Positions 11,801 through 53,700 of a stretch of 64,000 nt of DNA are shown piece after piece (the first letter of the stretch is position 1; every line of letters starts with the position of its first letter). The notes under the pieces were generated by a model, which made no database searches, was not told the DNA's origin, and saw only the letters and a program-made list of their open reading frames with translations. The translations under genes and the position numbers were made by a program. The DNA is taken from contig OZ281495.1 of assembly GCA_965637545.1 (NCBI GenBank), forward strand, positions 24,304,001 to 24,368,000. The letters are read 5' to 3'. The stretch is from Phallusia mammillata. Taxonomy: Eukaryota.

Positions 11801-14345
11801 CCACCTGGTGCCTGGTCGCAATGGAGTGAATGTACAGAAAGCTGCGAAGGAGGTGTTCAAACCAGGACGAGACTTTGCGCCAACCAATTTGGCTGCAACG
11901 GAGCTCTACACAATACGCGCGCTTGCAACCAACGTCCCTGTGAAGGTCAGTGGAAACAAAGACTAGGACTTAAGCTATAATACAATAGCAATATATTTCA
12001 GTCCGATTAGGCATGTCCCAAAGATACTTCCGAATGGTACTACATATACTAGAGATAATAAAGTTAAGCTCGGTAATGTAATCTTGATTTGAACGAAGTA
12101 TTTTCCTTAAATACTCGTACATCTGTTCGTACTATAATTCTCACCTAAGAAAAGTTAATTTTGCATTGTTTTAGACTAACGCGGCTGTTTGTATGTTGTA
12201 TTATATAAAAAATAGGATAAAGTTTGGTTTTCTCTGCTTTAAATAGTTCTTCGTAAATCACAGGGTTTACCAACTGGAGCCCATGGTCTCAGTGCACAGA
12301 AATTTGCGGCGGTGGAGAGCATAGCAGAAGTCGTACTTGTCCCCCTGCCACCAACTGTCCACCAGATCAACACGGTACAAACACTGTACAGCTAGCAGTT
12401 TGCAACAGTCAAGTTTGCCCTGGGACATGGGCTTCGTGGACAGAATGGAGTGTTTGCAGTAAAACGTGTGGACCTGGCCAGCAAAAGCGAAGTCGACAAT
12501 GCAAAGGAGGTGTTGTGGGACAAGCCGGATGCACCGAACCGCCCGAAGAAACGCAAAACTGCCAAATTGAAGTTTGCCCTGGTTTCTGGGGGGACTGGGT
12601 TCCCGTCGGAAGTTGTTCGGCGTCCTGTGGGCCGGGTACGTCGTCCGAAAGAAGGACATGTATTGGCGGGGTGCCTGGAGGACCAGGGTGTCCCGGACTT
12701 GCCACCCGAGATGTCAATTGCAACTTGGGCGACTGTGTTGTGCAATGGTTGTCATGGAAACCATGGACTACTTGCTCCAAACAATGCGGTGGCGGCGACA
12801 GGACTCGCGTCAGGTAATTTTACGTTGTCCCTTATAATGTAGCTTGGAATGTTTCCATATTGACCTAGCTTTTTTAACGTAAACAGAACATGCGAACATG
12901 GGGCACCAGGCGATGTCGGGTGCGAGGGTTCTGCTGACGAAACCGAACGATGCAATGAGCAGAAGTGCGCGACAGGTACGGTTGCGAGCTTCAAGTCACC
13001 TATTTGTTTACAAAATGCGTTAACGCATATGGTTGTGTTCTTCAGGTCCCTGTGCCGGTACACGCGACTTGGTAGCATGTGGACATCTTGTGGGATATTG
13101 TACTGTGTTGATAGACTATATGCAAGCAAATTGCCAAGAGACATGCTGCAAAGCCAGATATAATATAGGTGAGATAATATAAATATACATTCAATACTGT
13201 GATGAGCCCTGGAGCGTTCATGTAGACTCCCAATTATGGCAAACTTATATGTGAATCATAGTACACCTAGTCATTTAATATACGAGACAGACAACGGTAC
13301 TTGTGATTTGACTTTCCGTAGGCTCGCCACCGAGCCTTTGGTAGAGCGCCAAAGCAGAGTTGCAAGTCGGGCCGAGCTTTTCGGGCCGGGTTCGGGCTTA
13401 GGTATTTGTGAGAAAACGGGCTTAAAACGGGCCTGACTTTACGTTCCGTGTCCGCCATTTTTTCAAATAAAATCACTCAGCTAAGTAACAAGTCTCTGGC
13501 GTTGACCTAATGCCCACCCTACTCTAAAACATATTGTTTACGCCATTGTCTACTATTGTTAATTGTGTTTGTTGTCTTTCTCTTTTTTCTTTCTCATACT
13601 TTGTTGCAAGACTTTCGTGGATAGACCTGTCAATTAAAATTTCGGGCCTAAACGGGCTTCTCAAAAACGTTTCGGGTTCGGGCCGGGCTTCGGGCTTATA
13701 CTTTCGGGTTCGGGCCGGGTTCGGACTCAGATTTTGGGCCCGCTTGCAACTCTGCGCCAAAGGCTTCTGTCATGGGTTCTAATTTAATGGTAGAGATACT
13801 AGGTCGTAAAGGGCACAGTTATTTAAATTACCAGAAAACTGGGGTAGGGTTACGAAACAACTAAGAAGTTTTTTTGATTGTTATATTATTATAAAACCTC
13901 ACCCCAACTCCAATAGCCATAACCTTCATCATTTTCACTCAATTTGCTTTCAAATATTCGCAAACGCTTTTAACGCATCAGTTCTATCAGAAATTAGCAA
14001 ACTTTGGGTGATCTTACCTTAGTAGATTTTCCTAATTCCACCGCAGGCTATATTTTTCTAACCTATGCCTTGACATGTGGAAATGCTTGGGACACTGTCA
14101 TCATTCGGTTGAACGCCTTCAATAGGCCTGTTGTACTATAATAATGTATATAGGAGTGACATACATTTCCTCACTAGTTTTGACATTACATAAGAATTTA
14201 CTTTGTGTTTGCAGGAGTCGGTCAGCCGCCGTGCCAGGATGACCCAGCACAAGCGGCGAACTGCTTCAACTTTGCCAGTTTTTGCCACACTGGTCAAATG
14301 CGGTGGATGGTCACGAGCTGTCGAAAAACATGCCGCTTTTGCTAG
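2858..14345 (+). CDS. Secreted modular trypsin-like serine protease 1: SP-ShKT-EGF-cbEGF-S1 protease-~15 TSP1-ShKT-~5 TSP1-2 ShKT (multi-exon)
   Basis: Phase-consistent GT-AG exons: 2858-2880 (MATILDK), 2951-3015 (signal peptide [13 protein letters not shown]), 3234-3359 (6-Cys ShKT), 3923-4202 (EGF, DINEC EGF), 4566-4651 (DR-IVGG...WPWQ), 5050-5135 (TAGHC), 5699-5869 (NDVAL), 6053-6212 (GKDACQ), 6453-6650 (GDSGG). Then ~20 WxxWxxC..TCGGG..R.R.C TSP1 repeats (7011-12975). Last exon 14215-14345 is an ShKT ending [11 protein letters not shown]. Confidence 0.9.
3716..3875. mobile_element. hAT-type MITE (family A)
   Basis: TIR CAACGGTGGGATTC / GAATTCCACCACTG; 8-bp TSD GATGTACA/GATATACA; reverse-complement homolog at 6736-6916. 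Confidence 0.8.
6736..6916. mobile_element. hAT-type MITE (family A)
   Basis: TIR CAGTGGTGGGATTCA / TGAAGCCCGCCATTG; TSD CCTTAAAC/CCTAAAAC. Confidence 0.8.
13201..14160 (+). mobile_element. Older, diverged copy of the tRNA-containing Penelope-like non-autonomous element, with an inverted 5' segment and two nested insertions
   Basis: 13201-13278 is the reverse complement of the 19431-19540 repeat. 13280-13354, 13763-13784 and 14032-14160 align forward to ~19590-19825. Confidence 0.8.
13355..13754. mobile_element. hAT-type MITE (family B, CGGGCC/CGGGTT-rich subtermini)
   Basis: TIR CAGAGTTGCAAG / CTTGCAACTCTG; perfect 8-bp TSD CGCCAAAG; inserted in the tRNA-like part of the host element. Confidence 0.9.
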
Positions 14346-18404: not shown

Positions 18405-21400
18405 ATGGCGAAGACAAGCCAGCAAATTGTATTGTAAGTATCCAGTTTTAGATTTTGTTTTGCCATGGTGATTCATACATTCAAGCTAAAGCTGCCAGAA
18501 ATTTTAGGGCGTGATAACAGAGATGTTGTTTTTTTGTTTAGATTTTCTATTCTGCTTTTGGGCTTCGTTTCCCAGCGTGCAAGCGGCCAATGTACGGGTG
18601 GTAAGTTTCATTTTTGAATTTTATTTGGCAACAGTTATCTGAACATTTATTAAATGTTAAGACAGTCGACTATTGTTCATCAATCGTACTTATCTTGTAA
18701 TTTTTACCTGCAGGCGGATTGGGATGTAAAGATTGCTATACGTGGTGCAAAGATTACAAACATCTTTGCGACCAATCAATTGTTGGAAAATATTGTTCTA
18801 AGACCTGCGGCACAGCCACCTCGTGTGGAATAGATGGTAAGTGATCAAATGTCATCTAATTAGTACGTTCAACAAAAACGAAAATTCACGAAGCTTAAAA
18901 GATTTTGGGATCTTGTGGGCATGCATCATGCATAAAGCAACAAAACAAAAGGGTTGTGTATGTTGTAGCACAAATGAGCATTTGAACTAAAGGCACCGGT
19001 TCTGCATATAGACTAAACTATGTTTTCAGCATGCGCAAACTGTGAACACAAATGTGTGGTCGACTCAGCTGCAAACACAGCCAAATGCGGTTGCTTTAAC
19101 GGCTATACTCTCGCAAGTGACGGTCATTCTTGCGAAGGTGAGTTACATGACAAATATTACCATTTTCAAAGTTGAAACGTCAAGTAAGCTCAAAGTTCGT
19201 TATGTTCAGATATCAATGAATGCTTGATACCCGACATCTGCAAAAATGTGGAAGGCCAACCAATCAAAAATTGCCTCAATACGAACGGCTCATACAACTG
19301 TCATGCCTGCTCAGGAAGCGATATGAGGGGTTTTTACAAACAGGAGGGTTGTTGTAAAATTACAGGAAGTAAGTGTGATTTCCGTAAATATTTTGCTGTT
19401 TCATATTTCATATGATATGAAGGCGCTATACTTCAATGGGCCTGGCGTACTGTGATTTACATATGAGTGTGCCGTGATCGCTGGTCTGCATAGACGCTTC
19501 AGGGCTGATCCCAGTTATGAATTTATGTTCATCTTAACTGATACTGGTCAATCTGGCGATCCCCTACTACGAAGCTGACATGTGCAGCATACGAGGCAGG
19601 CAACGGTGCTTGTGATTCGACTTTCGGCGGATTCTCCACTGGGCCTGTGTAGCTCAGTTGGTAGAGCGCGAGTCCCGGAAAGACTCCTGTCGTGGGTTCG
19701 AATCCCACCGCAGGCTAGATTTTTCTAGCCTACGCCTTGCCATATGGTGGTGAATGCTTGGTGACCGGCTGATTCGGTATAGCGCCTTCAATGGGCCTGG
19801 CGTACTGTGATTTACATATGAGTGTGCCGTGATCGCTGGTCTGCATAGACGCTTCAGGGCTGATCCCAGTTATGAATTTATGTTCATCTTAACTGGAATC
19901 CATTTATTTTTAATTGATCCTCCATTTGTTTGATTCCTACAACAAATTTTTGTTTGTTTTTTTAAATTTATCAAATGGAAGAAATGCAAAATGCCTGAAT
20001 TTTTTTTCTCCCTCAAATGGTTTTGTACAGAAAATCAACACTATTTAGAACTTGTTGGTTTCAGTTGCATCCCAATAGGTACAGTAAAAATACCTAAACA
20101 GCTATAATATTAGCATTCTAAATTCTAGACTTTGAAAGCTGCGGACAGAGTTCAACGACCGGCCGAATTGTAGGTGGAGAAAACACAGACATTGAAAAAT
20201 GGCCTTGGCAGGTAATGTTCTTACCTACTTTACTCTGTTCAAAATTGTTCTCTAACTTGAAATCGACAACTTGACCTACGTAAATAATTAAACATTGTTA
20301 TGAAGTACACGGTTTTGAATAATCTGAGCAAAAAAATCAGAGCCAATATATTGGTGTAGAACAGGGGTTCTTAACCAGGGGTACATGTACCCCTTGGGGG
20401 TACGAAGCACCAAAGTAGGGGGTACGACAGTCAGTGTGAAATTATGCATTATTTAGGCATATTTGTGAAGAATGCGTAACAAGTTACTTTGTTATGTGTA
20501 GTTGATTTCTGTAAATTTTGTTGAACTTACAAGACTATTTTAATGCATGCATTCAACACGTAAGTTATAAATACACTGAGTTTAATTCCCATTATTGTTT
20601 ACTTCCGTTGGCCATTGTAGACAGGGGGTACGAGAAAATGTCATGAAAGCTCAAGGGGTACAAGCGCTAAAAAGGTTAAGAAACACTGGTGTAGAACATA
20701 ACGACGTTTCGACAAGTGCTATATTGTCATCATCAGGTTATAAGAAAGTTTTATAACTTGTTGATGTCTTATAACCTGATGATGACAATAGCACTTATCG
20801 AAACGTCGTTATGTTCTAAACAAATATACTGGCTCTGATTTTTTTTGCTTACATTGGTATTATAATACCTATATTATAAATGCTTATAAGGTCGAACGTT
20901 TTCAGAAATACATTGTCAGCAACAGCCGTTTTGTGTGCGATTTTTATCAGGGTTTTATGTTTAGGTATACGTTGTGATCAGAAGCCAAGTTTGCGGTGGA
21001 AGCATCATCAACAAAGATTGGATCGTAACTGCCGGTCATTGTGTCGTGTGAGTAAACATTGTTGTGTTGTTGGCCATTTCTGCCAAGTCCATGATTGTAA
21101 GCAATCTTAAATTAAGGAAATCTTATTAAATAACACTACACGTTTCTGGCTTGGAAGGGACCTTGTTTTTGGTGCGAAGTAGTTGAAATTTGTGATGAGT
21201 ATCAGTCATGTTATTCGTTTTTAAAGAGCGCTATGCTATATTTGTATTCAACTTGATAGTCAAATTAAATAATAAAAGGCCCATTTTCGATTTTTAGCGA
21301 CATCGGACAGCAAGATTATCACCTACTGACTGTCGTCGCAGGAGTTACCGAAACTGTCAATCAAACCAGCGTTCACCACCAAACCTGCGATGTTGCTGAG

Positions 21401-24400
21401 GTAATTATCATACTTTTGCCAGCGTATTGGTAAATGTAACCTATTTTATTAGCACTACTGAGACATCAACAACACTCCATGTTTTATATGCGTGTCTTTG
21501 CTAAGGAGAGACGAGTAACGTTTTATGTTTAAACTAGTACAGTCTTAATAATATTAACTTACCTATCATTTTGAAGGCAGATATACCAGTTCATACAAAT
21601 GAGCTTTTTAAAACACAAAAGTCCCCCCAAAAAACTAATCACATAGCAACAGAGTAGCAGAACGAGTCGTTAAAGGTGATTTGTGTTTTGTTCATAAAGA
21701 TCATCCTCCATCCGACCTACACAAACCTGAGAAATGACATTGCTCTCATCCGAGTGTCACAGCGTTTTAACTACGGCACCTATGTAAAACCAATCTGTCT
21801 GCCAAACGGTGAAACACCTAAGCCAGGAGACAGATGTTTTGCTACGGGATACGGAACCACCTGTAAGTTATCGTCATTTACCAGTCGTTATAGGTTAGAC
21901 AGTTTTTAAGGTAATTTTGCTCCTTTTTAGCATATCGAGGAGCACTGGCGGTTCAGCTTCAGGAGGTCATGCTTCCTGTGGTGGACTATGCAACATGTAA
22001 CAAATCTTACAATGGGACAAAATATACAGTTAACCCCAACACCATGATCTGTGCCGGGTATGCGGAAGGCGGAAAAGACGCATGTCAAGGTAAATACAAA
22101 TCAAATATTGGTTTCAAACGCCAAATCATTGCCAGCCACGCACTGTTTTGACTTGAGTTATAAAGCTATATCTGTTTTGCGCCACATTTTGCACATAGTA
22201 AACCAACCACCATACTTTTCATGTGTTGTGTAGAATTTTATTCAATACTGTTCTTTTGTAGGTGACTCTGGTGGACCGTACGTATGCCAACGTTGCAAGA
22301 AATGTGATTGGTACTTGGCTGGAATCACATCGTTCGGCATCGGGTGCGCCGATGCTGGACGCTACGGCGTCTTCACCAACGTTGAGAACTTCGAAAAATG
22401 GATTGAGCAGCAAATTGGATACACAGTTACAAAAAACAATGCGGTCTGCGACGAGTCAAGTAAGTGAAATATATAACAAAGTGATATCCTTAACACACCG
22501 TTTACCAAGAGACCAAAACAGATCATCCGCGCACTTCTCGCACATATGGTGAAAGATGAAATGAAATGTTTTTAGTTAATGGTTCCCTTATCGTTTTTTT
22601 TTTAACCATACCTGTTTCCGCAGCTTGGTCTCCATGGCAAGATTGGTCGGATTGCACAGAATTATGTGACACTGGTTCAAGAACAAGATTCAGGACGTGC
22701 AGTGGTACTAGATGCCGCGGATCCAATGCCGAAACTGAACCCTGCAACACCCACACTTGTTCGGAAGGACGTAAGTTTGATTCGTCATTTATTGTAACTA
22801 CAAGGGTTGTTGAAATTAAATTATCAACGATATGGACTCACAACCACCACACCCCACCTATTTGCCTGTTACTGCAAATACAAGGCTTATCAGTTTATAA
22901 ACAAGTAAATGTTGCTTAGTGGTACCACTCAAATCTTAAACTATTTACAGTACTATTACATACAATAAGTGTTTAACATTTAACATCGCATACAGGTTGG
23001 GAAGATTGGGCACCATGGTCGCAATGCTCACAAACATGTGGCAGCGCAAGTCGAAGCAGATTGAGATCTTGTATTGGCGGAATTGTTGGCCAGCCTGAAT
23101 GCATAGGTTCATCTTCCGAAAGCGAAGTAAGATTCGTTTTCGTATGTCTGGTGTGTTTCTCGAGGAAATTTAACATTGTGTTTTTACAGCTATGTGGACC
23201 TGAGAAATGCCCAAGATGGGGACCTTGGAGTGATTACTCGCCTTGCACGCTTACATGCGGCACCGAGGGCCTCAAATCGCGGAGTAGAGCTTGTGAATAC
23301 GGAACGCCCGGACAAGATGGCTGCAAGGGAGTAACATCAGAAACAAGAGGATGTAACATGAGTGAGTTTCATTATTCTGTATTAACACATCATCAAATGT
23401 TGGCTGGCGTAAACGTTGTGCAGTAGTTTTTAAACAAATAGCCATTATCATTTTTGTGTAGAAACCTGCCCTAGCTGGTCTTCTTACTCATACGAAAAGT
23501 GCAGCGTCACTTGTGGCACCGGAACACAAAAGGGAACTAGAACATGTTTGAATGGAAACGTCGGCGATATTGGATGTGAAGGAAAAACACAACGAACCAA
23601 AAGCTGCACACCAGCTACTTGTCCAAGTACGTTTAACTTTAATCCACCACAGTTCAACTTTGAAAGGCTTGACACAATTGCATCAAATGGCAAAACAAAT
23701 GTATGAAGATTGTTACCTACAAACCAACTAAAATTTCGTGAATGAAATTCAAGATTTTGCCAATTGCCGTTTTGATGTGATTGTTGATTTTTTCGTTGGT
23801 AAGTACGTATTTAGAAAAAAAGAACCAACGGTCAATATATTGTACTCGCGCGGTTGGTGATAATTATTTGTACACAGCGTTAAAGACGAATTTCATTTCA
23901 TAGTTTCTGTTTGCAATATTTTTGGACGAATTTCCTTCAAGTTTTATTGCCCTTAACTTATTTAAATGGTCTTTTCATTAAATGGTGTAGATGAGTGGAC
24001 AAACTGGTCAAAATGCAGCATGACTTGTGGTGGAGGAACTAGAACACGCAGCAGAGGAGCCGAAAGCGAATCAGAGGTAATCTCAAAAAACCCTTAATAC
24101 AAAAATTATAAAAAGTGAATAATCAACCGAACAGGCTCACTTTGCCACAAAATACAAACCATTTGACCTGTTTCAGAACGCGACCGTGTGAGTTGCTGAT
24201 AAAACGTTGGAGACAACGCGGTGTATTTGACTAGCTGTTTTAAAGCACTTACGCGAACACTGTCTTAAACCCATTTCATTTGTTTGAAAAAAAGTTACCA
24301 AAAATCATATAAAAAGAGGTTTTTCTCAGGCATGCGAAACCGGCGAATGTCCACAATGGGGACGATGGGGAATATGGAACGCGTGCTCGAAGACGTGCGG

Positions 24401-26538
24401 AGGTGGAACGCAGCGAAGCGAAAGAGCTTGCGAGAATGGAAACATTGGCGACATCGGCTGCGAAGGAAAATCAGCGAGAACTCGAAAATGTTCAGAAGGT
24501 CTGAACTATCTTTTTAGCCATTTTGTGCGAATGGAGATTTTACCACTTGTTTCTGTACAAATTTGCAGAAAGCTGTCCAGTATGGGGTCCATGGGGTGTG
24601 TGGAATGACTGTTCAAAGACATGTGGAAATGGTACAAGAACGTCTAGCAGGGCCTGCATCAATGGGACTGTTGGTCAAATCGGCTGCACTGGCTCAACGA
24701 CAAAAAGCGAATCTTGCAATGAACGTAAGAAACGGATCACTTGCTTTGTAAAACTCAATTGCCCAATAAACCATAATGTTTACAGAATTGTGTCCGATTT
24801 GGAGCAATTGGTCGAAGTTCGGATCTTGTAATGTCACATGCGGAGGTGGAATTAAGGTTTCGACCAGACAATGCGAGAATGGTAACGTTGGTCAGGATGG
24901 TTGTATTGGCAAAACAAGGCGGACCAGAGTGTGTGCCGAATCGATTTGCCCAGGTAAAGATTAGGATCAAAAGCAAATTAAAAAATGCCCCTAATATACA
25001 TATCGGCGCTAGTACCGTTTTTATCCAGAATAACTGGCAAAAAAACTTGGTGTTTTGGTTTTTAAGTGTTCAGCCAATGGGCGGAATACGGTCCCTGCGA
25101 CGAATCTTGCGGACCAGGCAAAAAAACTCGAACAAGGACCTGCCCGCATGTTGGTCTCTGCCCAGCTGACGAACACGGCGTAGTCCTTAGCCAACAGGCG
25201 GACTGCAATTTGGGAGAATGCCAATGGAACGCGTGGGGTCCTTACGGAGATTGTTCGAAGACTTGCGGAACAGGAGAAAAGACTCGAACTCGGTGAGTCA
25301 AACATTACCAGCAAACGTTCGTCATGACCAACGTGAAACAAAAACGGCATTTAAAAAAGGCCAAAAATTTGACTTGACCTGAATAAAACAAATTTTATGG
25401 GGTATTACGTGAAGTACAGCACTTCGTCTTTTCCTAAGTTTATTTTATTTTTCTCTGGCGGAGACAAGGTTTAAAAAAAATTATTTAACAAAATAATTGT
25501 CATCAACCTACTTGTTTCATTTTAGCGCTAGGTTACTATTCCGGCCGATTTTGGACGTTGGTGACTTCAAATCGGGCCAACTAGTTGAAACCTGATAATT
25601 ATCTCCACGCTGACAAAAACTTTAGCAATTCACAAACGCATTTGAGAAAACAGCCTACCTTTGCATAGTGATATCATGTCTTGGCATACCAGTCAATGTT
25701 TAAACTAATAGTTGGGACTATGAGAATAATTACTGGGCCGATCTCGATATATTTGTAAACAATAAAGAAGAAACACCCTAAATTTATGAAACTCCTGGAC
25801 TGTACATCAACAAGTATAGTAAAAGTTCACTTCTTTGGGCCTGTGAAGCTGCTTCAGTTTTTGCAGTGACATACCTAATCATAATTTTTGCTAATTCACA
25901 GGACCTGTAGTGCCGGCGCCGGAAAGTGCTTTGGATCAAGTGAAAACACAACGTCTTGCACACTCGCGGCATGTCCAGCCGACAAGTGCAGCAACGAAGT
26001 AAACGTGGATACACAAGAAGCGTGTACCTTATATACGAGGGCCGGATATTGCGTTCAGTTTGCGCCTTACATGGCCCTAAACTGCGCCTTGGAATGCTGC
26101 AGAGAGAGAAACGGTAAGAGAGATAGTATTTGATTGGGCACACTTTCTATTCCACGCACTTATTAAAAAACATTTTATATGACCTGAATTAATTATTTCT
26201 TTTTTGGGGTAGACTCCAAAAGGTATATAATTGTAGAGTACAGAATTTTTTAGAGATACGTCCAATACTTGCAAACCCAGTTAGAAAATCTCAACCGTAT
26301 ATATTATGTATACATGATGTCAAAGGCTACCCAACCTACCCTTCAAATCGCAGCGTTTTGCTAGATACAGTTCGCCATCATGACATAGGCTACGTATTCT
26401 ATATTTCCAGGAATCGTCGCACCACAGCCCTGCCTAGACACCGTCCCAAGCGTATGTCTGATTTATATCAACCTTTGTCCGACAAACAACGCTTACATGA
26501 ACTCAAACTGCCGCAAAACATGCAAATTTTGCGAATAG
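18405..26538 (+). CDS. Secreted modular trypsin-like serine protease 2: SP-ShKT-EGF-cbEGF-S1 protease-~10 TSP1-2 ShKT (multi-exon)
   Basis: Exon 1 18405-18433 (MAKTSQQIV), signal peptide exon 18542-18600, ShKT-like CKDCYTWC..CSKTC, EGF exons 19030-19137 and ~19210-19368, 20129-20211 (GR-IVGG..WPWQ), TAGHC (20965-), NDIAL (21700-), GKDACQ/GDSGG (22262-), TSP1 exons 22624-25980. Last exon 26411-26538 ends CRKTCKFCE-TAG; AATAAA at 26880. Confidence 0.9.
19418..19895 (+). mobile_element. Young non-autonomous element with 110-bp perfect direct repeats (period 355 bp), a 14-bp 5' inversion and an internal tRNA-like module (Penelope-like architecture)
   Basis: 19431-19540 is identical to 19786-19895. 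19418-19431 (TGAAGGCGCTATAC) is the reverse complement of 19777-19790. Absent from the equivalent intron of paralog 3. Homologs at 13201-14160 and 31105-31277. Confidence 0.85.
19643..19716 (+). tRNA. tRNA-like cloverleaf (anticodon loop CCGGAAA, nominal GGA) inside a repeat element; probably not a translational tRNA
   Basis: Acceptor GCCTGTG/CGCAGGC, D-arm GCTC-AGTTGGTA-GAGC, anticodon stem GAGTC/GACTC, T-arm GTGGG-TTCGAAT-CCCAC. Intact A and B boxes, T-run immediately downstream. Atypical C33, one extra nt at position 26 and a short variable loop. Confidence 0.6.
20362..20688. mobile_element. hAT/Buster(Charlie)-type MITE
   Basis: TIR CAGGGGTTCTTAACC / GGTTAAGAAACACTG; perfect TSD GTGTAGAA. 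Confidence 0.9.
20697..20742 (-). ncRNA. Minimal type I hammerhead ribozyme (minus-strand copy)
   Basis: Minus strand reads TATAAC-CTGATGA-T-GACAA-TATAGCAC-TTGTC-GAAA-CGTC-GTTATG: core CUGAUGA/GAAA, 5-bp stem II, 6-bp stem I, GUC cleavage triplet, loop-less palindromic ACGU stem III. Confidence 0.75.
20770..20813 (+). ncRNA. Minimal type I hammerhead ribozyme (plus-strand copy)
   Basis: TATAAC-CTGATGA(20776-82)-T-GACAA-TAGCAC-TTATC-GAAA(20800-03)-CGTC-GTTATG; one mismatch in stem II. Confidence 0.7.
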
Positions 26539-28336
26539 TCAACCTGCTTTTTGGGTTTGGTGTTTTGTATCGTCGTTCGGAATTGACATTTACCCGCTCT
26601 CGCAGCATGTTTGCTGCAAACATTTTTGTTCCGACATGAAATTATGTTCTTTATTGTCTCGTTTACCCGCGTTTAACACACAATACAGCCCAGGCACAAA
26701 TACACACAAAAGCGGAAAAATATCAGGCTAAATTGATTTTCGATGATATATATTAGTTTGCGTTTTTTTTTTTGGACGCCGAGCTTTTATCCTTAAAAAT
26801 ACTAATTAAATATCAATGACAATATTGTTTCACCGGCAAAAAATATCTGTGCTTTTATTTTTACCGCCCAAAGCATGTGAATAAACAGTTTTTCAGAGAC
26901 GTTTTGTCTGCTTTGTAGAGAGATTTGAAGACAGTTTTTTAAGCGGCTTGTAAGCTATACGTGGCCCTCGCGCGTCATTGATATTATCCGAAGTTGTAAA
27001 CTGGCCTGAAATTGGAGCTCGAAACCGGCCCAAAGCCAAATCGTTTTTAAGAAGCCCGTTCATGCCCGAAAGTTTGATTGACAGGCCTATACATTAAAGC
27101 AGTGGTTCTTAACCTTTTTATAACGGCCGAACCCCTACGATATTCTTCAGCCTTTGGTCGAACCCCAAAGCTACATCCTAAGTGTTTAACCCATTTTGTT
27201 TGGTGGGTCATAATTAGTTTTTCTTCAAACGTAGTGGCGATAGTTACTGTTTGTCCTTTTTTTAAATCTGACTTAATACAAGTAACTTGTTTCATGATTG
27301 CTTTAATTCCGGAAATTTTTAGCATCTGCACACAAACTTGAAAAAGATGAAGTAATAAGTTTTTGCTGCCAACAAAATTTCGTTGTGTTTCTGCATTCGA
27401 ACAACGCGAACAATGCTCTTTGTTACGTCAAAAAAATAAAATAAAACCTTACTGCAGGGGTACACAACCATTTTGATAAGACGGCCGCATCGCAGAATCT
27501 TATTTCACCAACGGCCTTCCCTGAAGGGGACACATATTGTTTTTGTCTATATTTTTTTTCTTTCTAACGCGGATTTGTTCCCACGTTTTGGTCAAGAAAG
27601 AATGGTTCAAACTTTTTCAAATTTACACACATTATAGATATTGGTCTAAAGATGGTCCATGTGAATTTTGACCCCGTTTGATCCCTCGGTTTACCCACAG
27701 CCCCCAAAACGTGAAGTTTTTAAAACGGCTATACTTGCTAAAGTACTTCATTTAGGAGTTATATGCTTTGTTGTTTGGTGCAATATAAGGTATTTTAAAG
27801 AATTTTGTACCTTAAAAAAATATTTACCCATTTTCTCCCCTTAAAAACACCAAAATATTCGTTTCTGTCTAACGCTGGTTTGTTAAATGCGTTTGGTCAA
27901 AAAAGAGTGCTTTAAATGTATTCAAATTTGCACAGATGTTAGTTATTGTTTCGAATTTGATCCTCCTGAAGTTTGGCCCCAAACGACCCAGAAGTTCACC
28001 CACAGGCCCCCGAAACGAAAAAAAATTAAAACGGCTGTACTGACCCAAGTACATAATCTGAGGGTTTCATGCTTTGTTGGTTGGTGCAATGTAAGCTATT
28101 CTAAAGAATTTTGTAACTTTTTATTGGATTCACCCATGTTTACCCCTTAAACCCCAAAATAATAAGTTTTAGGCCAGAAACACAAGCCCTAATGTGCTGA
28201 AATGTTAAACAATTGTTTGCAGTAGGTTATTTGTTTAGTATTTAAAAATTCGCCTTAATCGGCCAAATAGTTACTTCTACAGCCCATAATATGTGTACAC
28301 TGTCAGTGAGATAGAAGTCTCAAATCTCAAGGTAGT

Positions 28337-30826: not shown

Positions 30827-33800
30827 ATGACACATACAAGTCAACAAAATGTATTGTAAGTATCTATGTAACTTTGTGGCGGCCATTCATATGTTAAACC
30901 TCTTGAAACATTATAGGCATGATTGCAGAGATGTTGTTTTATTTTAATTTAGAGTTTTCTTTCTGCTTTTGGGCTTCGTTTTCCTGCATGCAAGTGGCCA
31001 ATGCCTGCCCGGTAAGTTTCATTTCTCAACACCAACCTGGATATTTGATGATTTGAAAATCGTAAAAAAACCAAAGGCTCTTGTTAAGCATTCCCACTTT
31101 TCATGTATTTTTATAGCCAGTGCATTGCCACATGTGGGGCTTGGTGACGGTCTGGCTCTGCACAACGCCTTCAATAGATCTGACATACTATGATTTGTAT
31201 ATGAGTGTGTCGTGATCGCTGGTCTGCACATGCCCTTCAGGACTGATCCCAGCACTAATTTATTGTTTATGTAACTGATTTCATGTGATGCTTATCTGCA
31301 GGAGAACTGGGATGCAAAGATTGTTATACGTGGTGCAAAGATTACAAATATCTTTGCGACCAAGCGATTGTTGGAAAACATTGTCCTGAGACATGTGGCA
31401 CAGCCAAATCCTGTAGACTCGCCGGTAAGTGGTAAAATTCACGTAATAAGTTAAATAACAAAAAACTGTATATTTCTCTCCGTGAAGAGCTGTTGGTGTA
31501 CAAGGAAATTCAAAATATTTTTTTCCCATTTTTAGGGAAAACTTTGCGGCATAAACGGTAAGGTTTTTTTATGTATGATTTATGCGTTTTCAGAGTGCGC
31601 AAACTGTGAGCAAAAATGTACGGTCAATCCAACTACAAACACTGCCAAATGCGATTGCTTCGAAGGCTATTCTCTCGCAAGTGACGGCCAAACGTGCAAT
31701 GGTGGGTTACATGACGAACATCACCAGTTATAAAATAATGTTATTCAGAATTAATTTCAATTTTTCAAAAATATTTATGTTGAGATATCGATGAATGTTT
31801 GATACCCGGCATCTGCAAAAACGTGGAAGGTAAACCTTTTAAAATATGCCACAATTTCAACGGTTCATACACCTGTTATGCTTGCTGGGAAACAAATATG
31901 AGAAGTTATTACAAGAAAGACGGTTGCTGCAAACTTACAGAAGGTAAGATGAATTCCTCTCAATAATTTCGCTGTTTTATTTGCTTGTGCATACAAGTTA
32001 TGTCATATATTTGTGCGATTTCCTTTTTACTATTTTTTACTGATGGTAGTAATCGAAAATGCCTACAAGAGTGTTCTAACAAAAACCGTTAGGTGGAATA
32101 ACAATTTTGCATAGAACCAGATTCCCTAAGCTGTGGAAGGCCTTCAATACCTCCGAGAGGAGATTACACAAAAATTGGAAAATGGCCTTGGCAGGTAACA
32201 GTAACGTATTTCATGTTTTTAAAACCGATTACAGGCCTGCACAAAGCATATTTTTACAAAAAGCATGGTATATACATGATTGTTATTAAACTATTCGTGT
32301 GAGCAACAGCCATTTTGTTTGCAATGTAAATCAGGCTTTAATATCCCATAGGTGTACGTTGTGGTCAAAAGCCAGGTTTGTGGCGGAAGCATTATCAACG
32401 AAAACTGGATCGTGACTGCTGGTCACTGTGTCGTGTGAGTAAACATTGTTTTGTTGGTACTATTTCTGCACGGTTTAATGTTGTAATAAAAAATAAAGTC
32501 CAATTTGAAATGAAATCAGCCCTACCGTAACAGTTTTCCGGTGATAACTGTTATCTACAGCAATATGATTCAAAACCCAGTGTATAAAACCCTAGGCCAA
32601 ACAGTTGCACTGTACAGCTTGTTTTACCATTTTATCGCTTTTATAACAGTGTTATATTCTCTCACAGGAACCGAAAATGCCAAAAACATTTGGTGAAATA
32701 TAAGCTTATTTTCTGTGAAAATACTTTGTACAGAACGGTTAATTCTGTTTGGCCTAGGTTTTTATACATTTGGTTTTGGATGATGTTGAAACTAAGCAAC
32801 GCTTACTTTTCAGCAAAATTAACTGAAATAAAAAAATTTGACAAAGGGAACTTTTTCGACTCAATGTTCCCAAAAATAAATAATTCGTACAAATAGGGTG
32901 TAGTAGGCTATTCGTCTGCTACCATATTTTAAAAGGCGCTACGCTATTCGTACACAACTTTGTTTTAAACTTCAGTGGCATCGGACAGCAAGACTACCGC
33001 CTATTGACTGTCGTCGCTGGAGTTGGTGAAACTGCCGATCGAACAAGTATTCACCAGCAAACCCGCGATATTGCTGAGGTAATTGTATTTACGCGAACAT
33101 GTTTACCAATATAACTTATTTGGGAGCGAAACAGTTTTTGTAAGTCACACGCCGTTGGCACAATCCTTTATATCAGTGATTCTCAACCTGCATGTGGTAT
33201 GCGTGCGACGGAGCTTTTCAGGTGGTGCGGGAGCCGCTTTCTGCTATACCTAAATCAAGTTAGACCATAAAATGTAACTGAACTAATCCAACTAATCAGT
33301 CCTGGTTTTGGGTAAAACTCGGGTCTTGGACTATCTTTTGGAACTGTTAACTTTGCTGACTTTTAAAATAGGCTGTCCTAGTCAAGAAGAATATGCCTAC
33401 ATATTTTGATCTACCCTTTCAACAGGATTTGGGGGTTACGCAGCTACAAAAAATGCGTCAGGTGGTACGCGATTAGATATGTGTAGCCTACAGCTTTATG
33501 GTTAGGATGGGGGTGGCCTAGGATGGGCCAAGAAAAGCAATCTTGATAAGTTTGAATTACCGTTGTGTTTCAAATATGCAATTAATAGATACTGATCAGC
33601 ATTATCAATTTTTTTGATAAAAATGCAAAAGTGCTTCTAAGAGATGAAGCGTTTCTGGTCGGTGATTACTAGAAAATTACCGACTTTGTTTTGTTTCAAA
33701 AGATTATCCTCCATCCCTCTTACACGAATCAGACGAACGACATAGCCCTCATCCGAGTGTCACGGCGTTTTTACTCCGGCACCTTTGTAAAACCAATCTG

Positions 33801-34579
33801 TCTGCCAAACGGTGAAACACCAATGCCAGAAGACATATGTTTTGCCACGGGATACAGAACCACCTGTAGGTTACCGTCATTTAGTAAACCATGCAGGTAT
33901 GGACCAGCATCTGATTTTCTTTCCTTTCCAGCCTATCGAGGATCACTGGCGGTTCAGCTTCAGGAAGTCATGCTTCCTATGGTGGACCATGCAACATGCA
34001 ATAAATCATATGAGGGAACAATATACACAGTTAATCCCAACACTACGATCTGCGCAGGTTATGAGGAAGGCGGAAAAGACGCGTGTCAAGGTAACCACAA
34101 ACGTCAATGCAAATAGTAGACTATGAACAAATAGCGAATTATCGTCTGCCGTTCTCTGTTTCGATAATCTTTCATGCGGCAGTTAAACTTCTTTTGTGCC
34201 ACATTTGTGGTGCGTTATCATATTTGTTTGTAACTTTGGACCTTTACATTTTCAATTATGGTACAAACACCCAGCAGATGCTTTTTATGTGATTAAGTAA
34301 TAATTTTCTCAGCACTGTTGTTTTGTAGGTGACTCAGGTGGACCGTACGTATGCCAACGTTGCAAGACATGTGATTGGTACTTGGCCGGAATTACATCGT
34401 TCGGTATTGGGTGCACCGACGCTGGACGCTACGGTGTCTTTACCAACGTTGAGTTCTTCGAAAAATGGATCGGGCAACAGATCGGACAAACAGTTACAAA
34501 GAGCAACGCGGTGTGCAACGAGCGAATAAGTAAATCAAAGGGCAAGGTTGGCGTCCTAAACAAGGATGAAATATTTTGA
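30827..34579 (+). CDS. Truncated paralog of protease 2: SP-ShKT-EGF-cbEGF-S1 domain, no TSP1 tail, activation motif deleted (possible pseudoprotease or young pseudogene)
   Basis: Eleven exons homologous to gene 2 with no stop or frameshift seen. TAGHC, NDIAL and GDSGG are intact. Exon 32115-32194 reads PPRGDYTKIGKWPWQ. The last exon reads through the lost donor to TGA at 34577-34579; AATAAA at 34660. Confidence 0.8.
31105..31277 (+). mobile_element. 5'-truncated copy of the tRNA-containing Penelope-like element
   Basis: Aligns to ~19718-19895 and ends at the same TAACTG 3' terminus. Confidence 0.8.
32571..32778. mobile_element. Short MITE-like inverted-repeat element
   Basis: CAAAACCCAGTGTATAAAACCCTAGGCCAAACAG / CTGTTTGGCCTAGGTTTTTATACATTTGGTTTTG; TSD not clear. 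Confidence 0.65.
33174..33478. mobile_element. Partial hAT MITE (left end only)
   Basis: CAGTGATTCTCAACC left TIR and GGTGGTACGC-type subterminal motifs; right TIR not found. Confidence 0.5.
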
Positions 34580-35436
34580 AAACATCACTCTAATGTCACT
34601 GGAAATGTTGTTCCCACAGCGGAAGATTTGTTTCCTATTTTTCCCGCCAAAAATGTGTAAATAAACAGCTTTGCAAAGACCTTTTTCGAGTTTTGTTTTC
34701 TTCAAACTGTTAAAGCTTGTAAGCATGGACATGAAGTACATGTGTCTTTGATTGAAAAGATTGCTTGAAAAACAGCCCGATCGTACCTTAGCAAGGTGTT
34801 TTTGTTTACAAGAGAGCAAACTACTCTGTGCTGGAAGAGTTGAAGATATGTATAATCCACTTTGACTGAATGAAGAACTCCTTCAGTTTTTGTCTTATTA
34901 AACCATGTTTGCAACAACTTGGAAGTTAAAACCTACACTAAAAATAGTTTAATGCGTGCATACAAACCAATCTTTGGTTTCACTAAAACAACACCGTCTT
35001 GGAGCATCACACCTAAAGATAATTCTTGCAGGTGTCCAGCAACTTGGTAATTTGACCATTTGGCAAAATCGATGCAGTGTCAATAAAAGAAACTTGTGTC
35101 ATGTTGCATTAAGGCAAATACCTTTCTTATTCGCAAACAGATAAAATTTGACACAAGGGTGCTGGGAAATAAAAATCATTGGAAATCACTAAAAATCATT
35201 GGCAATAAAAGTGCTACATTAAACTCATTGCAAATGGGCCAAACAGTTTTTTAAGCACAATAGAGGCACATACAAGATGGAACTGATTCCTACATGGAAA
35301 ATGGGAAACAAAGTTGATGAAGTAATCTCACAGCAAAGATATACAATCTTTAATTCACCAAAACAAGCTTTTAAAGCCAACACACACTACTACATTATTG
35401 ACAAAATACATCATATTTATGTAAGTACATCTACAT

Positions 35437-47770: not shown

Positions 47771-50700
47771 ATGCAAACGCTCGCAATTTATTTTGTGATT
47801 TTGCGCTTTGATTCAATCCACTTGTTGAGTATGAATGTGATGTTTGTTGTTTGACCCAAAATATATCTGAAAAGTTGTAAACAATGGGGAAAAATAGGAA
47901 AACTAATTAATAGCTGTAAGTTTATTCTTAGGCCTCTTTATCGCTGTTTGTTTGAAGAGAGTCAGTTGAAAATACAAACGTTTATTTGCTTTTAGCAAAT
48001 GTCCAGGGAACATGTGGAGGAGAAATTATTGGCAGAAATGGAGGTGACATAGCAAGTCCTGGATTTCCTGATTCCAATTATCCCCCGTTGGCCGATTGTC
48101 AATACACAATCACAGCCCCAACCGATAATGTTGTTGTTGTAAGTGACCCAGCAGTAGTTTTTCAAGTCCTAGTTTTAGATATTTTATTTTTTTCAAGTTT
48201 TCTTCAACATATCTTGACCTCGAGCCAGAAGGATCTTTTGCTGAAGGAGAGGCATTGCAATGCTTTGACAAGATTTTAATTTATCGCACTGGCAATCTAA
48301 CTGACACACCGGATACATACTGTGGGAACAGCACAATTTACCCCACAGCAACAACCGGGAACAAGTTAATGTGAGTTTGCATAAAGCATTTATCTCAGTC
48401 ATGTTTCATCTTTGTATTACCTTGTTAACTTTTTTGTATATTTTGTTTCCGCTAAACAAAATCCTATGAAATAACAAGACACATTAGATAACTATTTTTT
48501 AACAACAATGTGTATGGTTTGTTTCAGTTTAATGATATCATGAACTATCTGTAAATCCAGGTAAAACTAAAATATAGTGCTTTCTTTAATATAAAGTGTA
48601 GTTGGGACCTCCAGGTAAGCAAATAAAAAAATATCTCATATTATACCACATTCTCAGTTTGCTTTTAATAGACAAAACATTTTTAGCATTCAACCTCAGG
48701 ATTCACAATATTATTCATTATCTTTTTTTGTTTCTAACTGCAAAACATGTTTCGCAGTGTTCAGTTTCAGAGTGACCAAAATACAGAACATGGTGGATTT
48801 GTTATCAATTGGTATGTTCTTAATCCACTAAATCGCAATCCTGTTTTTAACTGTGATTTTGATGGACCATTAGGATTATGTCCAGGTAGGTGCTTGCTTT
48901 TCTACTGGTTGCATCGGATAAAAAGCTCAATTTTATATTACCAAAATATTATTATTTAAAGGATGGACACAAGGTACTGCTGATGGAACTGACTGGTCCT
49001 TTGGACGTGGTCCAACTCCTTCAAGATCCACTGGTCCAACTGCGGACCACACCACTGGAACTGATGGTTGGTGTTATATGAGTGACTGTTGCACGTGCTT
49101 GTATTTAACATCTTGTGTCTAAAAACTATAGCAGGAAAATATGCATATCTTGAGGCCAGTGGAAAGCAGCGTGGTGCAACAGCTGTTATGTATTCTCCAA
49201 CTTTAATACTAAATGGTATGTTTAATTTATTTCTCAAATATTCCACAGTAAGTCAAAGTCTTCTTAATGCTGTCATCTATTGCAGAACAACCAGCATACT
49301 GTCTTGACATGTGGTACCACAACTCTGGTGAACACCGTGGATCAATTAATGTACTCCGAGTTTTTCAAAATGGTGATGGTTCATATTTACAAATTCTTGA
49401 AAACTTGGATCCTGGTTGGCAAAATGCCAGAGTTCCACTTCCTATCAGTGAACTGCCTATCCAGGTTTGGATGCTAAAAAAAGTTTTGAAAATATTAAAA
49501 TATTTTTGTCCCTTGGCAAATTTTAGGGCAATTAAGTTAATAATTTGCCTAATACTTGATTTACTTGACAAGTATGTGATTTGTACATAATGACATTTTA
49601 TGTGACTGGTCAAAAACCAAACCTTTACTTTTGCATTTTATTTGATAAAGATTGGAATTGAAGCTGTACGTGGAAGGGGTTACAAATCTGATGTTGCAGT
49701 TGATGACATCATGCTGCTTGCTGAAAACTGTGAAGAAAAAAATGCTACCGACTTATATGTATATGAAGGTTTGACATCAACCAATCTATTAAATTTCAGT
49801 TTCATGCAGAAAAAACACACACAAACTTATTTTTGCAGATTGCAGTTTTATCTGTTATGATGGAACATGCAAACCTCAAAACCAAGTTTGTGATGGATTG
49901 CCAGACTGTGATGAGGGAGAGGACGAACTTGATTGTCAAAGTTAGTTTTAGCAGGAACAGCACCTGCTTGGGTTGCTTTTTTCATAACTTTTGTTTTTTG
50001 GGTAAAAAGTAAGCACACAGTATTGTAATACTGAAAGTGACTATACTGAACAACATTTGACCTTTAGACATCATGGTCATTGAAGATCACTATATATATA
50101 ACAATAAAAACTTAATGGTGAAAATAACGTCCAAAACAGACAGCAAAAGCGAAATGCTTTATTTTTTAAACGTTTCAGCAAATGCTCATCCCAAAATAAA
50201 AACCTGAAAATGGAAAATATTTTCTAAGTATCAGAATCAGTCAATATTATTATGTGATGCTGATTCAAATTTTACATTTTTTGGAAGCAACTGCAGGATC
50301 AACCACGACAGAAGCCACCTCTTCTACCCAGATTTCCACAACCATATCTCAAAACTGTGAAGCGAACCTTGTATACATGCCATGTGGTTCAGCTTGTGCT
50401 CACACATGTGCTGATGGTGAGATTGCCCCATTGTGCACATTCAATTGTGTACCGGGGTGTTCTTGTCCTATTGACTTTCCAATCCTTCATGAGGGCAGGT
50501 TAGTACTGAAGTTTCATTATATTTATTAATGTTTCATTATACACTTTGTAAATTTACAATTTTATTTTTACCCTTAGGTGCATCACATATCAGGACTGCC
50601 CCGCAACAGCTCCCCCACAATTGTCAACTATGGTTCCAACAACAACACAAACACAGTCAACTCAAGCCACCACAGGTACAACAATACCCAAACTACTTCT

Positions 50701-53700
50701 TCTGATAAAAGACTGTAACACTTATTTCCAATTCTCAAGAAACTCCAACTACACCACCTGAACCACAATGTCCAGCAAATTTGGTTTTCAACTCATGTGC
50801 CAGCGAATGCAACCACACCTGCCGGGATGGAGACATACCTCCAGCTTGCACCAAACAATGTATACCCCGGTGTGCCTGTCCTGAAGCTCTTCCAATTTAT
50901 TATCAAGAAAGGTACAATACTTAGATTTAAATGGCACCAATAAAATTGCTCTCTTCAATGTTAAATATTTTTCTCCTAGGTGCATTGCTCTTTTGGATTG
51001 TCCTGCCCTAGAAGCTGTAACAGGGATTTCTGTGGATGCACTAACGATAAACAGTGCAAATGTGACTTTCCCAGTGGTTGCCACTGCTAGTTCATTTCGA
51101 ATCATCATTAACCTGGTTTCTAGCTCTTCACTTCTAAAGGAAATCAACTATCCCAATAACAAACCAAATGTTTCTGGGAGTGTTATTATTAAACTCAGCA
51201 ATCTTCTTCCAGGTATTTTTTAATGGTCAAAACCTTCCAATTTTATGATTAATGTAGAAAGTAAAACAAATACCAAGAACATAACATTATTGCGTATTTT
51301 ACAGAAACACAGTACTCTGTTCAAGTCTTCAGTGTGAGAGGAACTGAACAAGTGCCATCAGAAGTGTTTTTGTTTTCCACTTTGCCTTTGCCAACGGAAC
51401 CTCCTTCCACAACTACAGTGCAGCCTACTACTGGTATGAAGCAATGGATTTACACCATATATTTTAAGACTACACAACCATTGATGCACATGTTTTACCA
51501 AAAATGATATTGACAGTTTCTGAGATTTTGAAACTTTTAGCAGAAAAATAAGCTGCCTAAATAAACTTTTACTCTTAATGATAGTTTGCATTTTTTTTTA
51601 ATATGATTTTGTGATTGTGCAGATAAGTTAAAAAAATCTGATCATAAACCTTGATAACAATGGCATGTTTCACAGAAACAATCATATCTACTGCTACTAC
51701 GCTTGCTACAACAACTTCTACTGTAGCCACAACAACAATACTCACCACTACACGAGAAGCAACAACAACGACAGAAACCACCACTGAGGCTGCACCTGTC
51801 AGTTTAGGTAAGACAATGGTGTTTGCCATTGAATGGTATTAACACCATCCCATTGTAAATCATTTTTATAGGTTCCAGCTCTACACCCAAGTGTATACAG
51901 GATCTGCAAACTGCCTTGGAATCTGTTTCTTCTGACCCAAGCATGTTTAACAGGCTTCCGGAGTGCACTAATGATGGCTTGTACAGGTCACAGCAGTGCT
52001 ACACAGATACAAATGAGTGTCACTGTGTGGTAGAAGAAACAGGCCTGGAGATACCAGGGACTAGATTTGTACAAGGCAGTGCAGAACCAATTGACTGTGC
52101 CAGTGAGTAAACACCCACCTTGCGTCATAAAAAATATATCTGGTCTATCAAAATGTGGTGTTTCTGCAGATCTCACCCAATGCCAGCTCCAATTTAAAAA
52201 CACTGCTGTCTTTATTTTTACCAATCCTAACATTGCTGATGGTCCAACTTATCCTGATTGCACTGTGTCAGGACTATATGCCCCCACCCAGTGCAATGGG
52301 CTAACTGGGGTATGCTGGTGTGTCATTCCTGAAACTGGAGCAACAATACCGCAAACAGAAAAAAGCAGTCGCCAATTGCTCGACTGTTCAAGTAAGTGCT
52401 TGTCCTAATTGTTTATCATGAAAAATGGTTTGTCACCTTTTACAAACCTTACGTTGTAATTTTTGTACTTGTAGGTCTTACAAAGTGTCAGGAAAAGTAT
52501 CTGCAAACTGGTCAACAACTTGCTTTGAATCCTGGTGCAGCAAACACCCTAACTTACCCCAATTGCTCAGAAAATGGTTTGTTCGCTAGAAAACAGTGTA
52601 ATGGATTTACAAACCTGTGTCAATGTGTTGTGGAAGAAACTGGTGCAGTTATTCCAGGCACTGAAAAACAAGATGTTAATATTGATTGCTTAGGTGAGTT
52701 TTGCGACTTCTAGTCTATTAAAGTGCACTTAAATTTGTTTTCTAGTTTTACAATTTTAGGCTATTTTTGCTAATGCTAACATTTTGTATTGCAGTCCTAA
52801 CCAAATGTCAAACTGATTGGCATCGCTTGTCACAAATCATTAACACAATTCCTGCCAGTATACCCCATGGACTTGAGTTGCCAGAATGTGATGCAGAAGG
52901 CTACTTTGTTGCTAAACAGTGTGAAAAGGAAACAGACATTTGCTGGTGTGTTGATCCTAAAACAGGAGACATTGTGCCACAATCTGGAAGTGAGCCTGGA
53001 CAAGGAAGCCAAGTGGACTGCTCAGGTATGTTTGATTAATAATTTTGGATACTTAAACTATAACAGCTAATAGGCAACTTATATGTAGATATGTTAACTT
53101 TGGCAGTAGGTCTGTTTTTCTGCTATTTACTTCTTAAGTCAATAACAGAAAAATCATGGTTTTTAAAAATATTCTTTCAAACAAGTGTCAAAACATAAAT
53201 AAAATGATTCGGCCCTTAAGATTAGGTTTAACACTATAGTTTTTATTTTTACAATTTCTACGTTTTTGGCAGGGACCACCACAGCTCCACCAACTTCCAC
53301 TATAGAAAGTACTACCCTTGATACAACCTTACAAGTTACAACTACCTCCCACACAACCACTACTATTTCTACTGTGGCAGAACCTGTAACTACTTCCACA
53401 CCCACCACATTAGAAACTTCAAGTTCCACTCCAGAAACAGATGCAGTTGTTGATGGTACAGGTTTTTACTGTCAATATGGCAACAAAATATGTTTTTTTT
53501 TCTATTAAATAAAGTTTTTTCAAAAGGCTGCTAAAAAAAAAAGTATTACTATAAACTATACCAAGAGATCTTTATTACAAAAAAGTTTTTATTTTTTTGA
53601 TTTTTATTGCCACAAACCATTAACATTGATTCGGGTGTTTGTTTTGGGCAGCTTTATCTTGCTTATCATATAAACCATTTGCAATTAAATTAAAAGTGTC

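Follow-up and report, generated by a model that had tools for sequence, protein, structure and literature searches.

A tandem duplicate of a tunicate trypsin-like protease gene in Phallusia mammillata with an intact catalytic triad and no activation motif: a candidate zymogen-locked pseudoprotease

In trypsin-like serine proteases, packing of the Ile16 N-terminus and its pairing with Asp194 push the zymogen approximately a million-fold towards the active form, and the human protein PRSS23 is described in the same report as a secreted S1 domain in which the catalytic triad (His/Asp/Ser) is intact, the Ile16–Asp194 switch has been dismantled, activity is absent and a function is retained (PMC13194640). 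PRSS23 is the closest described counterpart of a gene that we analysed in a 64,000-nucleotide stretch of the Phallusia mammillata genome (contig OZ281495.1, positions 24,304,001 to 24,368,000 of the forward strand; hereafter the window), which holds three trypsin-domain genes, all on the + strand and here termed genes 1, 2 and 3. Gene 3 likewise encodes a putatively secreted S1 domain with the triad intact and the switch missing. PRSS23 has lost the acid at position 194, carries a glutamine at its N-terminus and is an old protein without close active relatives, whereas gene 3 keeps Asp194, has lost the Ile16 side by deletion, has gained Arg142 and adjoins a canonical paralog, gene 2, to which it is 84% identical. 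The kind of protein is already known from PRSS23, and what sets gene 3 apart is its young age and its near-identical canonical parent; its function is a prediction. By analogy gene 3 is likely to be PRSS23-like in its working, whilst lying outside the PRSS23 gene family as far as tested. We give an even chance to the reading that gene 3 encodes a zymogen-locked pseudoprotease, probably a secreted protein without catalytic activity that acts as partner of, or decoy for, gene 2, which resembles PRSS23 except that Asp194 is kept.

In an engineered zymogen-locked form of matriptase the P1 arginine was reportedly changed and the Ile/Val16 segment is intact, whereas gene 3 keeps its P1 arginine and the inserting residues are gone. 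The two are alike in that the triad is intact, activation is blocked and function may remain (PMC5452369). Single-chain tissue plasminogen activator (tPA), with a Lys156–Asp194 pair, and complement C2a, with a Glu194–Arg pair, share with gene 3 an acid at 194, the triad and the absence of Ile16 insertion (PMC13194640); a literature search on the C2a salt bridge returned nothing beyond that report. Unlike tPA, gene 3 has a glutamine at position 156, and the candidate substitute cation is Arg142, at a position that touches residue 194 in urokinase. The masquerade-type serine protease homologs of arthropods are also non-catalytic trypsin folds that work with active relatives, one of them reportedly a cell-adhesion protein, but their catalytic serine is replaced (GDGGGP in the sequences tabulated) and they carry clip domains, whereas gene 3 keeps Ser195 and has no clip (PMC1761132). 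By its ShK-EGF-EGF head, its family-specific cysteine pair and its place in the tree, gene 3 is a member of the tunicate ShK-EGF-trypsin-TSP1 family. Described sequences of this kind, with the order ShK-EGF-EGF-trypsin-(TSP1)n-ShK (Clavelina lepadiformis XP_076803120.1 and XP_076802578.1), share with gene 3 the domain order, an extra cysteine pair after Ser195 and the existence of tail-less or short-tailed members; unlike gene 3, they keep Arg-Val/Ile-x-Gly-Gly and Gly142. Among the 33 other family domains none had lost the motif while keeping its triad intact. In protein searches the nearest named homologs of the window proteases came from C. lepadiformis and Styela clava, with the best named matches 52–63% identical, and a literature search found no paper on the family, its function or switch loss in tunicates, many subscription papers being outside its reach.

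The reading frame of gene 3 (Table 1) contains no stop and no frameshift. Its domains were assigned with Pfam exon by exon: FXa_inhibition and Trypsin matched above the curated cut-offs, whilst the ShK, cEGF and EGF_CA matches fell below theirs, and the signal peptide was judged by eye, so that secretion is predicted from the N-terminus. Membership of the trypsin fold is indicated by PF00089, above its curated cut-off in four exons, and by solved trypsin-fold relatives. The catalytic triad, which the first-pass annotation of this DNA had reported as intact, is indeed complete in the genomic exons, and Cys1 is presumably paired with Cys122 as in S1A proteases generally. What is missing is the segment that follows the activation cleavage site. 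The gene 2 equivalent of the 80-nt activation-site exon (20129-20211) has 83 nt, and both exons give the translations quoted in the first-pass annotation. Counted from the Cys1 codon onwards, the exon measures 63 nt in gene 3 and 72 nt in gene 2, a net difference of 9 nt or three codons, and gene 3 has two extra codons before Cys1. The net codon loss is certain, whilst the mutational path is ambiguous between tied gap placements. A single 9-nt gap over the Ile-Val-Gly codons gives 45 matches of 63 and is the best in-frame placement (the others give 44), three out-of-frame placements also reach 45, and a 1+1+7 split reaches 50 of 63. An in-frame deletion is favoured because a homolog, P0004, carries Ile-Pro-Pro-Arg immediately before its IVGG. 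Of the ‘precise 9-nt deletion’ proposed in the first-pass annotation, the net loss and the absence of Ile-Val-Gly therefore stand; the word ‘precise’ is not established, since four placements tie and the split does better. In a six-frame scan of gene 3 no alternative exon with Ile-Val-Gly-Gly was found, every splice joint uses the 80-nt exon, and an exon-like stretch of 22 nt near 31537-31558 is bypassed by the joints. The freed Ile/Val16 N-terminus required of an active S1A trypsin-like protease is thus absent from gene 3.

A second change lies at position 142, which aligns with the glycine of the GWG motif in the solved structure of TMPRSS2 and at which glycine is expected of an active S1A trypsin-like protease. 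Here the genomic codon is AGA in gene 3 and GGA in gene 2, in agreement with the earlier observation that GYG has become GYR. Substitutions of glycine 142 inactivate clotting factor IX, although a literature search for effects of such substitutions yielded nothing usable. A wider set of 426 trypsin domains was compiled from the three window genes and 217 fetched proteins; of those from outside the window, 297 had an intact triad and a readable N-terminus; Gly142 was found in 293 of these and Arg142 in none. In urokinase Gly142 touches Asp194 (PMC5805342).

The combination of an intact triad with a lost switch recurs in this genome, a result absent from the first-pass annotation. Fifty of 75 other trypsin matches were examined, with a query that favours genes with Ser195, giving 53 trypsin genes with those of the window included. 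Among them four further genes, all read from genomic exons only, have the triad and no activation motif. L003 (G000:C2:24375600-24385550), an ShK-EGF-trypsin gene of the same cluster, 13–17 kb past the window end, has Glu142 and Glu194, is without Asp189 and sits on a long branch. L011 and L012 (G000:C2:26.53 and 26.59 Mb, - strand) are a pair from the family with no P1 arginine, with Arg142, Glu194 and probably Met193, and without Asp189 and Gly193. L048 (G000:C1:10597100-10604300, - strand) is a trypsin gene with Asn194 that keeps Gly142. By contrast, of the 45 genes whose motif is canonical or nearly so, 44 have Gly142 (L025, L027 and L033 were left out of this tally), and by lineage the association between motif loss and Gly142 loss gives P=0.0009, relatedness being uncorrected. 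The exception among the 45 is L028 (G000:C6:2037500-2044700, - strand), which has Asp142 and a canonical IIGG motif; it was considered as a switch-less gene and rejected, as the motif sits in an upstream exon. Two of the switch-less lineages stand on branches of ~1.8 changes per site. Motif loss in gene 3 was independent of the losses in L003, L011, L012 and L048 because gene 3 is sister to the canonical gene 2 (support 100 in a quick tree), and Gly142Arg in L011/L012 likewise arose independently of gene 3. Protein searches for orthologs of L011 and L003 found none, although these were weak searches with 3 and 4 candidates. With at least four more cases among the 53 genes, loss of the switch in proteins that keep the triad may be a common route whose frequency has been underestimated; an annotation based on the triad would call gene 3 an active protease.

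Gene 3 also differs from its neighbours in the tail. Gene 2–gene 3 homology runs through every exon to 22468/34534, then breaks, and resumes at the 3′ end of gene 2, where the two genes are 80% alike over the segments given in Table 1. The TSP1/ShK tail of gene 2 (about 22468-26856; modules counted by motif scan, not Pfam) has no counterpart in gene 3, and contigs read through the lost splice donor. Because homology resumes at the 3′ end of gene 2, the comparison indicates that the whole of gene 2 was duplicated in tandem to give gene 3, from which ~4.3 kb including the tail was then deleted internally, the poly(A) region being kept. This loss is a third lesion, absent from the first-pass annotation.

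Transcription of gene 3 was assessed in 8 of 24 listed public runs, none of which is recorded as RNA, so that spliced joints are the basis for it; contig depths were not used for ranking genes. All 10 introns are spliced GT..AG in public contigs, whilst the DNA run X4 is without such joints, and only two matches were obtained in the 240 Mb genome. Spliced contigs cross the 80-nt exon in six of the seven splicing runs (X6, X7, X11, X8, X10 and X13), from three studies; X11 covers it with no differences and no gaps, and the other five runs were read from record lengths and joint sides. These contigs rule out an assembly or sequencing error as the source of the short exon. The evidence is assembled from several contigs, the full frame being spanned by no single one. 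Spliced contigs of gene 2 type occur in X8, X10 and X13, three of the four runs of one set, by comparison by eye. X18, labelled as organism B, shows splicing and does not cover the 80-nt exon; the possibility that it comes from a diverged sister species was ruled out, as it carries the same alleles as X6. At window position 31943, the last base of exon 5, a common allele (Glu160Lys in X6, X8 and X13) leaves splicing unchanged.

Selection on gene 3 was estimated against gene 2 from the ratio of non-synonymous to synonymous substitution rates (dN/dS). Over 419 codons it is 0.27 (95% confidence interval 0.19-0.37) and in the protease domain 0.18 (0.10-0.29), with dS at 0.45-0.52; with all changes assigned to gene 3 and an equal split of dS assumed, dN/dS on the gene 3 branch is at most 0.44. 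At 58 conserved columns, defined from 21 family members, one of 38 protease differences was found where 9.5 are expected (P=0.0003), and that one is Gly142Arg. No coding insertion or deletion appeared among the rows seen for the eight compared runs, four further rows lying outside these. Six exon-11 differences in X4 were considered as gene 3 variants and rejected as gene 2 cross-mapping, five of the six being gene 2's letter. Purifying selection thus acted on gene 3 over most of the time since duplication, whilst the same data do not establish constraint at the present day. The first-pass annotation had named absent expression with dN/dS near 1 as the mark of a pseudogene; gene 3 is spliced and transcribed, and both estimates are well below 1.

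A zymogen-locked pseudoprotease fits these observations because the two lesions that affect conserved positions of the protease both strike the activation machinery. After a cut behind the arginine the new N-terminus would be Gly19, which has neither the length nor the hydrophobic side chain needed to occupy the Ile16 pocket and pair with Asp194, so that neither the S1 pocket nor the oxyanion hole would be expected to form. Arg142, in the loop contacting Asp194, may be a second lock or a change tolerated after the switch had been lost. Through the shared ShK-EGF-EGF head and protease surface gene 3 would bind the activator, inhibitor or substrate of gene 2, and without the TSP1 tail it would act as a small diffusible competitor. 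In the first-pass annotation a pseudoprotease or decoy had already been suggested, and its setting holds up (transcription with gene 2 in the same runs, an open frame, low dN/dS and the place of the two lesions), whilst the lock itself is a prediction; a literature search for a zymogen-locked, non-catalytic protease found nothing related. Several points count against it. A pure decoy would have no need of the triad, Asp189 or Asp194, yet gene 3 has retained every one of them, and across the wider set of homologs loss of the motif is not associated with loss of Gly142 (P=0.38). No gene 3 ortholog from any other species emerged from the protein searches. The dN/dS values pool the periods preceding and following the lesions, and neutral evolution along as much as ~16% of the gene 3 branch is compatible with them; in the protease domain that branch is threefold longer than that of gene 2 (0.17 against 0.054, quick tree), and polarised changes number 14 in gene 3 against 7 in gene 2 (P=0.19). 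Of the gene 3 polymorphisms in the rows listed, beyond which lie 72 more, 8 are replacements and 2 are silent with the six exon-11 rows from X4 excluded; this is the ratio expected under neutrality, and it does not differ from divergence (P=0.19).

The last of these points lend themselves to a different history. On this view gene 3 spent most of its existence as a short but active paralog; the motif disappeared only recently, and the copy, although still transcribed, is now on its way to becoming a pseudogene. All three special changes (motif, Gly142, tail) are losses, the threefold branch and the possible neutral span agree with such decay, the 8:2 count matches a neutral site ratio of 78%, no ortholog was found, and X18 shares its alleles with X6. 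The classical marks of a pseudogene (a stop, a frameshift or broken splicing) are nevertheless absent: the frame is open, 20 splice sites are intact, the poly(A) region is kept and every covering run shows the same short exon, and three separate lesions and a 6-nt length change have accrued, yet no null mutation. Moreover, the four other triad-intact, switch-less genes, two lineages of which stand on very long branches, indicate that the state can persist. We regard decay as a serious possibility, though one clearly less probable than a retained pseudoprotease. Less probable again, and in our view unlikely, is that gene 3 is a real enzyme that needs no cleavage, with Arg142 pairing with Asp194 or with a cofactor or substrate ordering the active site. 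Asp194, Asp189, Gly193 and the triad are kept, the sole change at a conserved column puts a cation beside Asp194, and in L011/L012 the pairing of Arg142 and Glu194 in one sequence arose independently, His/Asp/Ser being conserved at the end of a very long branch. The known exceptions to Ile16 insertion retain the acid at 194 and use an internal lysine or arginine (PMC13194640), and zymogen-locked matriptase works in vivo (PMC5452369). Position 156 in gene 3, however, is glutamine and not lysine, Arg142 is unprecedented among the 297 triad-intact domains, a glycine-to-arginine change needs just one base, and Ile16 packing is given as more stabilizing (4–5 kcal/mol) than the salt bridge (2–3 kcal/mol) (PMC13194640). 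Neither Glu142 in L003 nor Asn194 in L048 could use the pairing, and L011/L012 have lost Asp189 and Gly193. The broader proposal that sea squirts repeatedly make cleavage-free single-chain enzymes, by dropping the Ile16 segment and pairing Arg142 with the acid at 194 (Asp194 in gene 3, Glu194 in L011/L012), is a little more doubtful still; if true, it would be a third solution beside Lys156 of tPA and the Glu194–Arg pair of C2a, with gene 3 as a young case next to a cleavage-activated parent. For the pseudoprotease and enzyme readings alike, the gene 3/gene 2 pair offers a young natural case in which the birth of a pseudoprotease, and the replacement of the Ile16 N-terminus by an internal arginine, can be tested.

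Gene 3 carries an Arg-Gly-Asp (RGD) motif at the old activation site, as the first-pass annotation had pointed out. A crayfish protease homolog is said to be a cell-adhesion protein with an RGD of its own, and RGD in gene 3 lies on a segment that an activating protease must be able to reach. From this one could imagine a dead protease turned into an integrin ligand, serving in adhesion or as an opsonin, whose RGD is displayed on the former activation loop and inactivated by a cut after the arginine; indeed the motif spans the old cleavage bond, and the activating cut itself would destroy it. A review describes integrins and RGD-containing molecules as involved in ascidian endocytosis (PMC5465252). 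Two of the three residues pre-existed, however, the arginine as P1 and the glycine as Gly19, and the only new one is aspartate for the glutamate of gene 2, a conservative change; in canonical domains the residue following the GG motif is aspartate in 11 of 264 and glutamate in 57 of 264. Of 425 other trypsin-domain sequences, 21 contain RGD at some position but none at the activation site, the four other switch-less genes are without it, and the ~10 TSP1 repeats that form the adhesive part of gene 2 are gone from gene 3. The motif is likely to be a by-product of the deletion. A role for it is possible, but the gained adhesion function suggested earlier finds no support here, and we hold the adhesion molecule to be highly improbable.

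Table 1. Features of gene 3 and its paralogs (positions in the window)
Feature	Position	Strand	Remarks
Gene 1, older canonical paralog	2858-14345 (end approximate)	+	gene 2 architecture with longer TSP1 tail; 3′ part from motif scan only
Gene 2, canonical paralog	18405-26538	+	head as in gene 3; Arg-Ile-Val-Gly-Gly 20164-20178; Gly142; then ~10 TSP1 repeats and two ShK-like modules
Gene 3	30827-34579	+	11 coding exons, open frame of 438 aa; signal-like N-terminus, ShK, EGF, Ca-EGF, trypsin domain, short tail
Gene 3 coding exons 1-6	30827-30855, 30953-31011, 31302-31424, 31594-31701, 31785-31943, 32115-32194	+	
Gene 3 coding exons 7-11	32352-32434, 32976-33078, 33703-33865, 33932-34090, 34329-34579	+	
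Activation-site exon of gene 3	32115-32194	+	80 nt, AG/GT borders, without Ile16-Val17-Gly18
Cys1	32132-32134	+	predicted partner Cys122 (33799-33801); predicted tether of activation segment
Arg-Gly-Asp, residues 174-176	32156-32164	+	former P1 Arg directly followed by Gly19; Asp replaces the Glu of gene 2
His57	32424-32426	+	intact
Asp102	33739-33741	+	intact
Arg142 replacing near-invariant Gly142	33856-33858	+	AGA, GGA in gene 2; genomic letters, codon 10 nt from exon end
Asp189, trypsin-type specificity pocket	34078-34080	+	intact
Asp194-Ser195	34331-34336	+	intact; Ser195 codon 34334-34336
Read-through end of gene 3	34527-34579	+	splice donor after last protease exon gone; frame enters former intron; stop 34577-34579
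Gene 3 3′ end	34636-34685	+	homologous to gene 2 26856-26905; AATAAA 34660-34665; contigs end 34669-34680

Several further features were observed in the paralogs and around them. Residue 244 of gene 2 (window 21298-21400) is an extra cysteine, likely unpaired, where gene 3 and most homologs have arginine. Gene 2 has an intron insertion (19431-19895) with two identical 110-nt direct repeats 355 nt apart, between which lies a tRNA-Ser-like gene (19642-19717), and a decayed piece of this intron repeat is also found in a gene 3 intron (31107-31279). Another intron of gene 2 (20330-20845) contains nested inverted repeats, with the arms of a fold-back element at 20330-20363 and 20812-20845, an inner one at 20689-20821 and a second element (20352-20698) nested inside. 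In gene 1 two near-identical consecutive TSP1 exons (7485 and 8218, within about 7330-8350) point to a recent internal duplication. Between the window protease genes and L003 lies a large multi-exon gene (about 49250-64000, + strand), which has cysteine-rich exons similar to inhibitor modules of the TIL and thyroglobulin types, along with CUB-like and MAM-like exons, all named by eye, and a Thr/Ser-rich mucin-like exon of ~3 kb.

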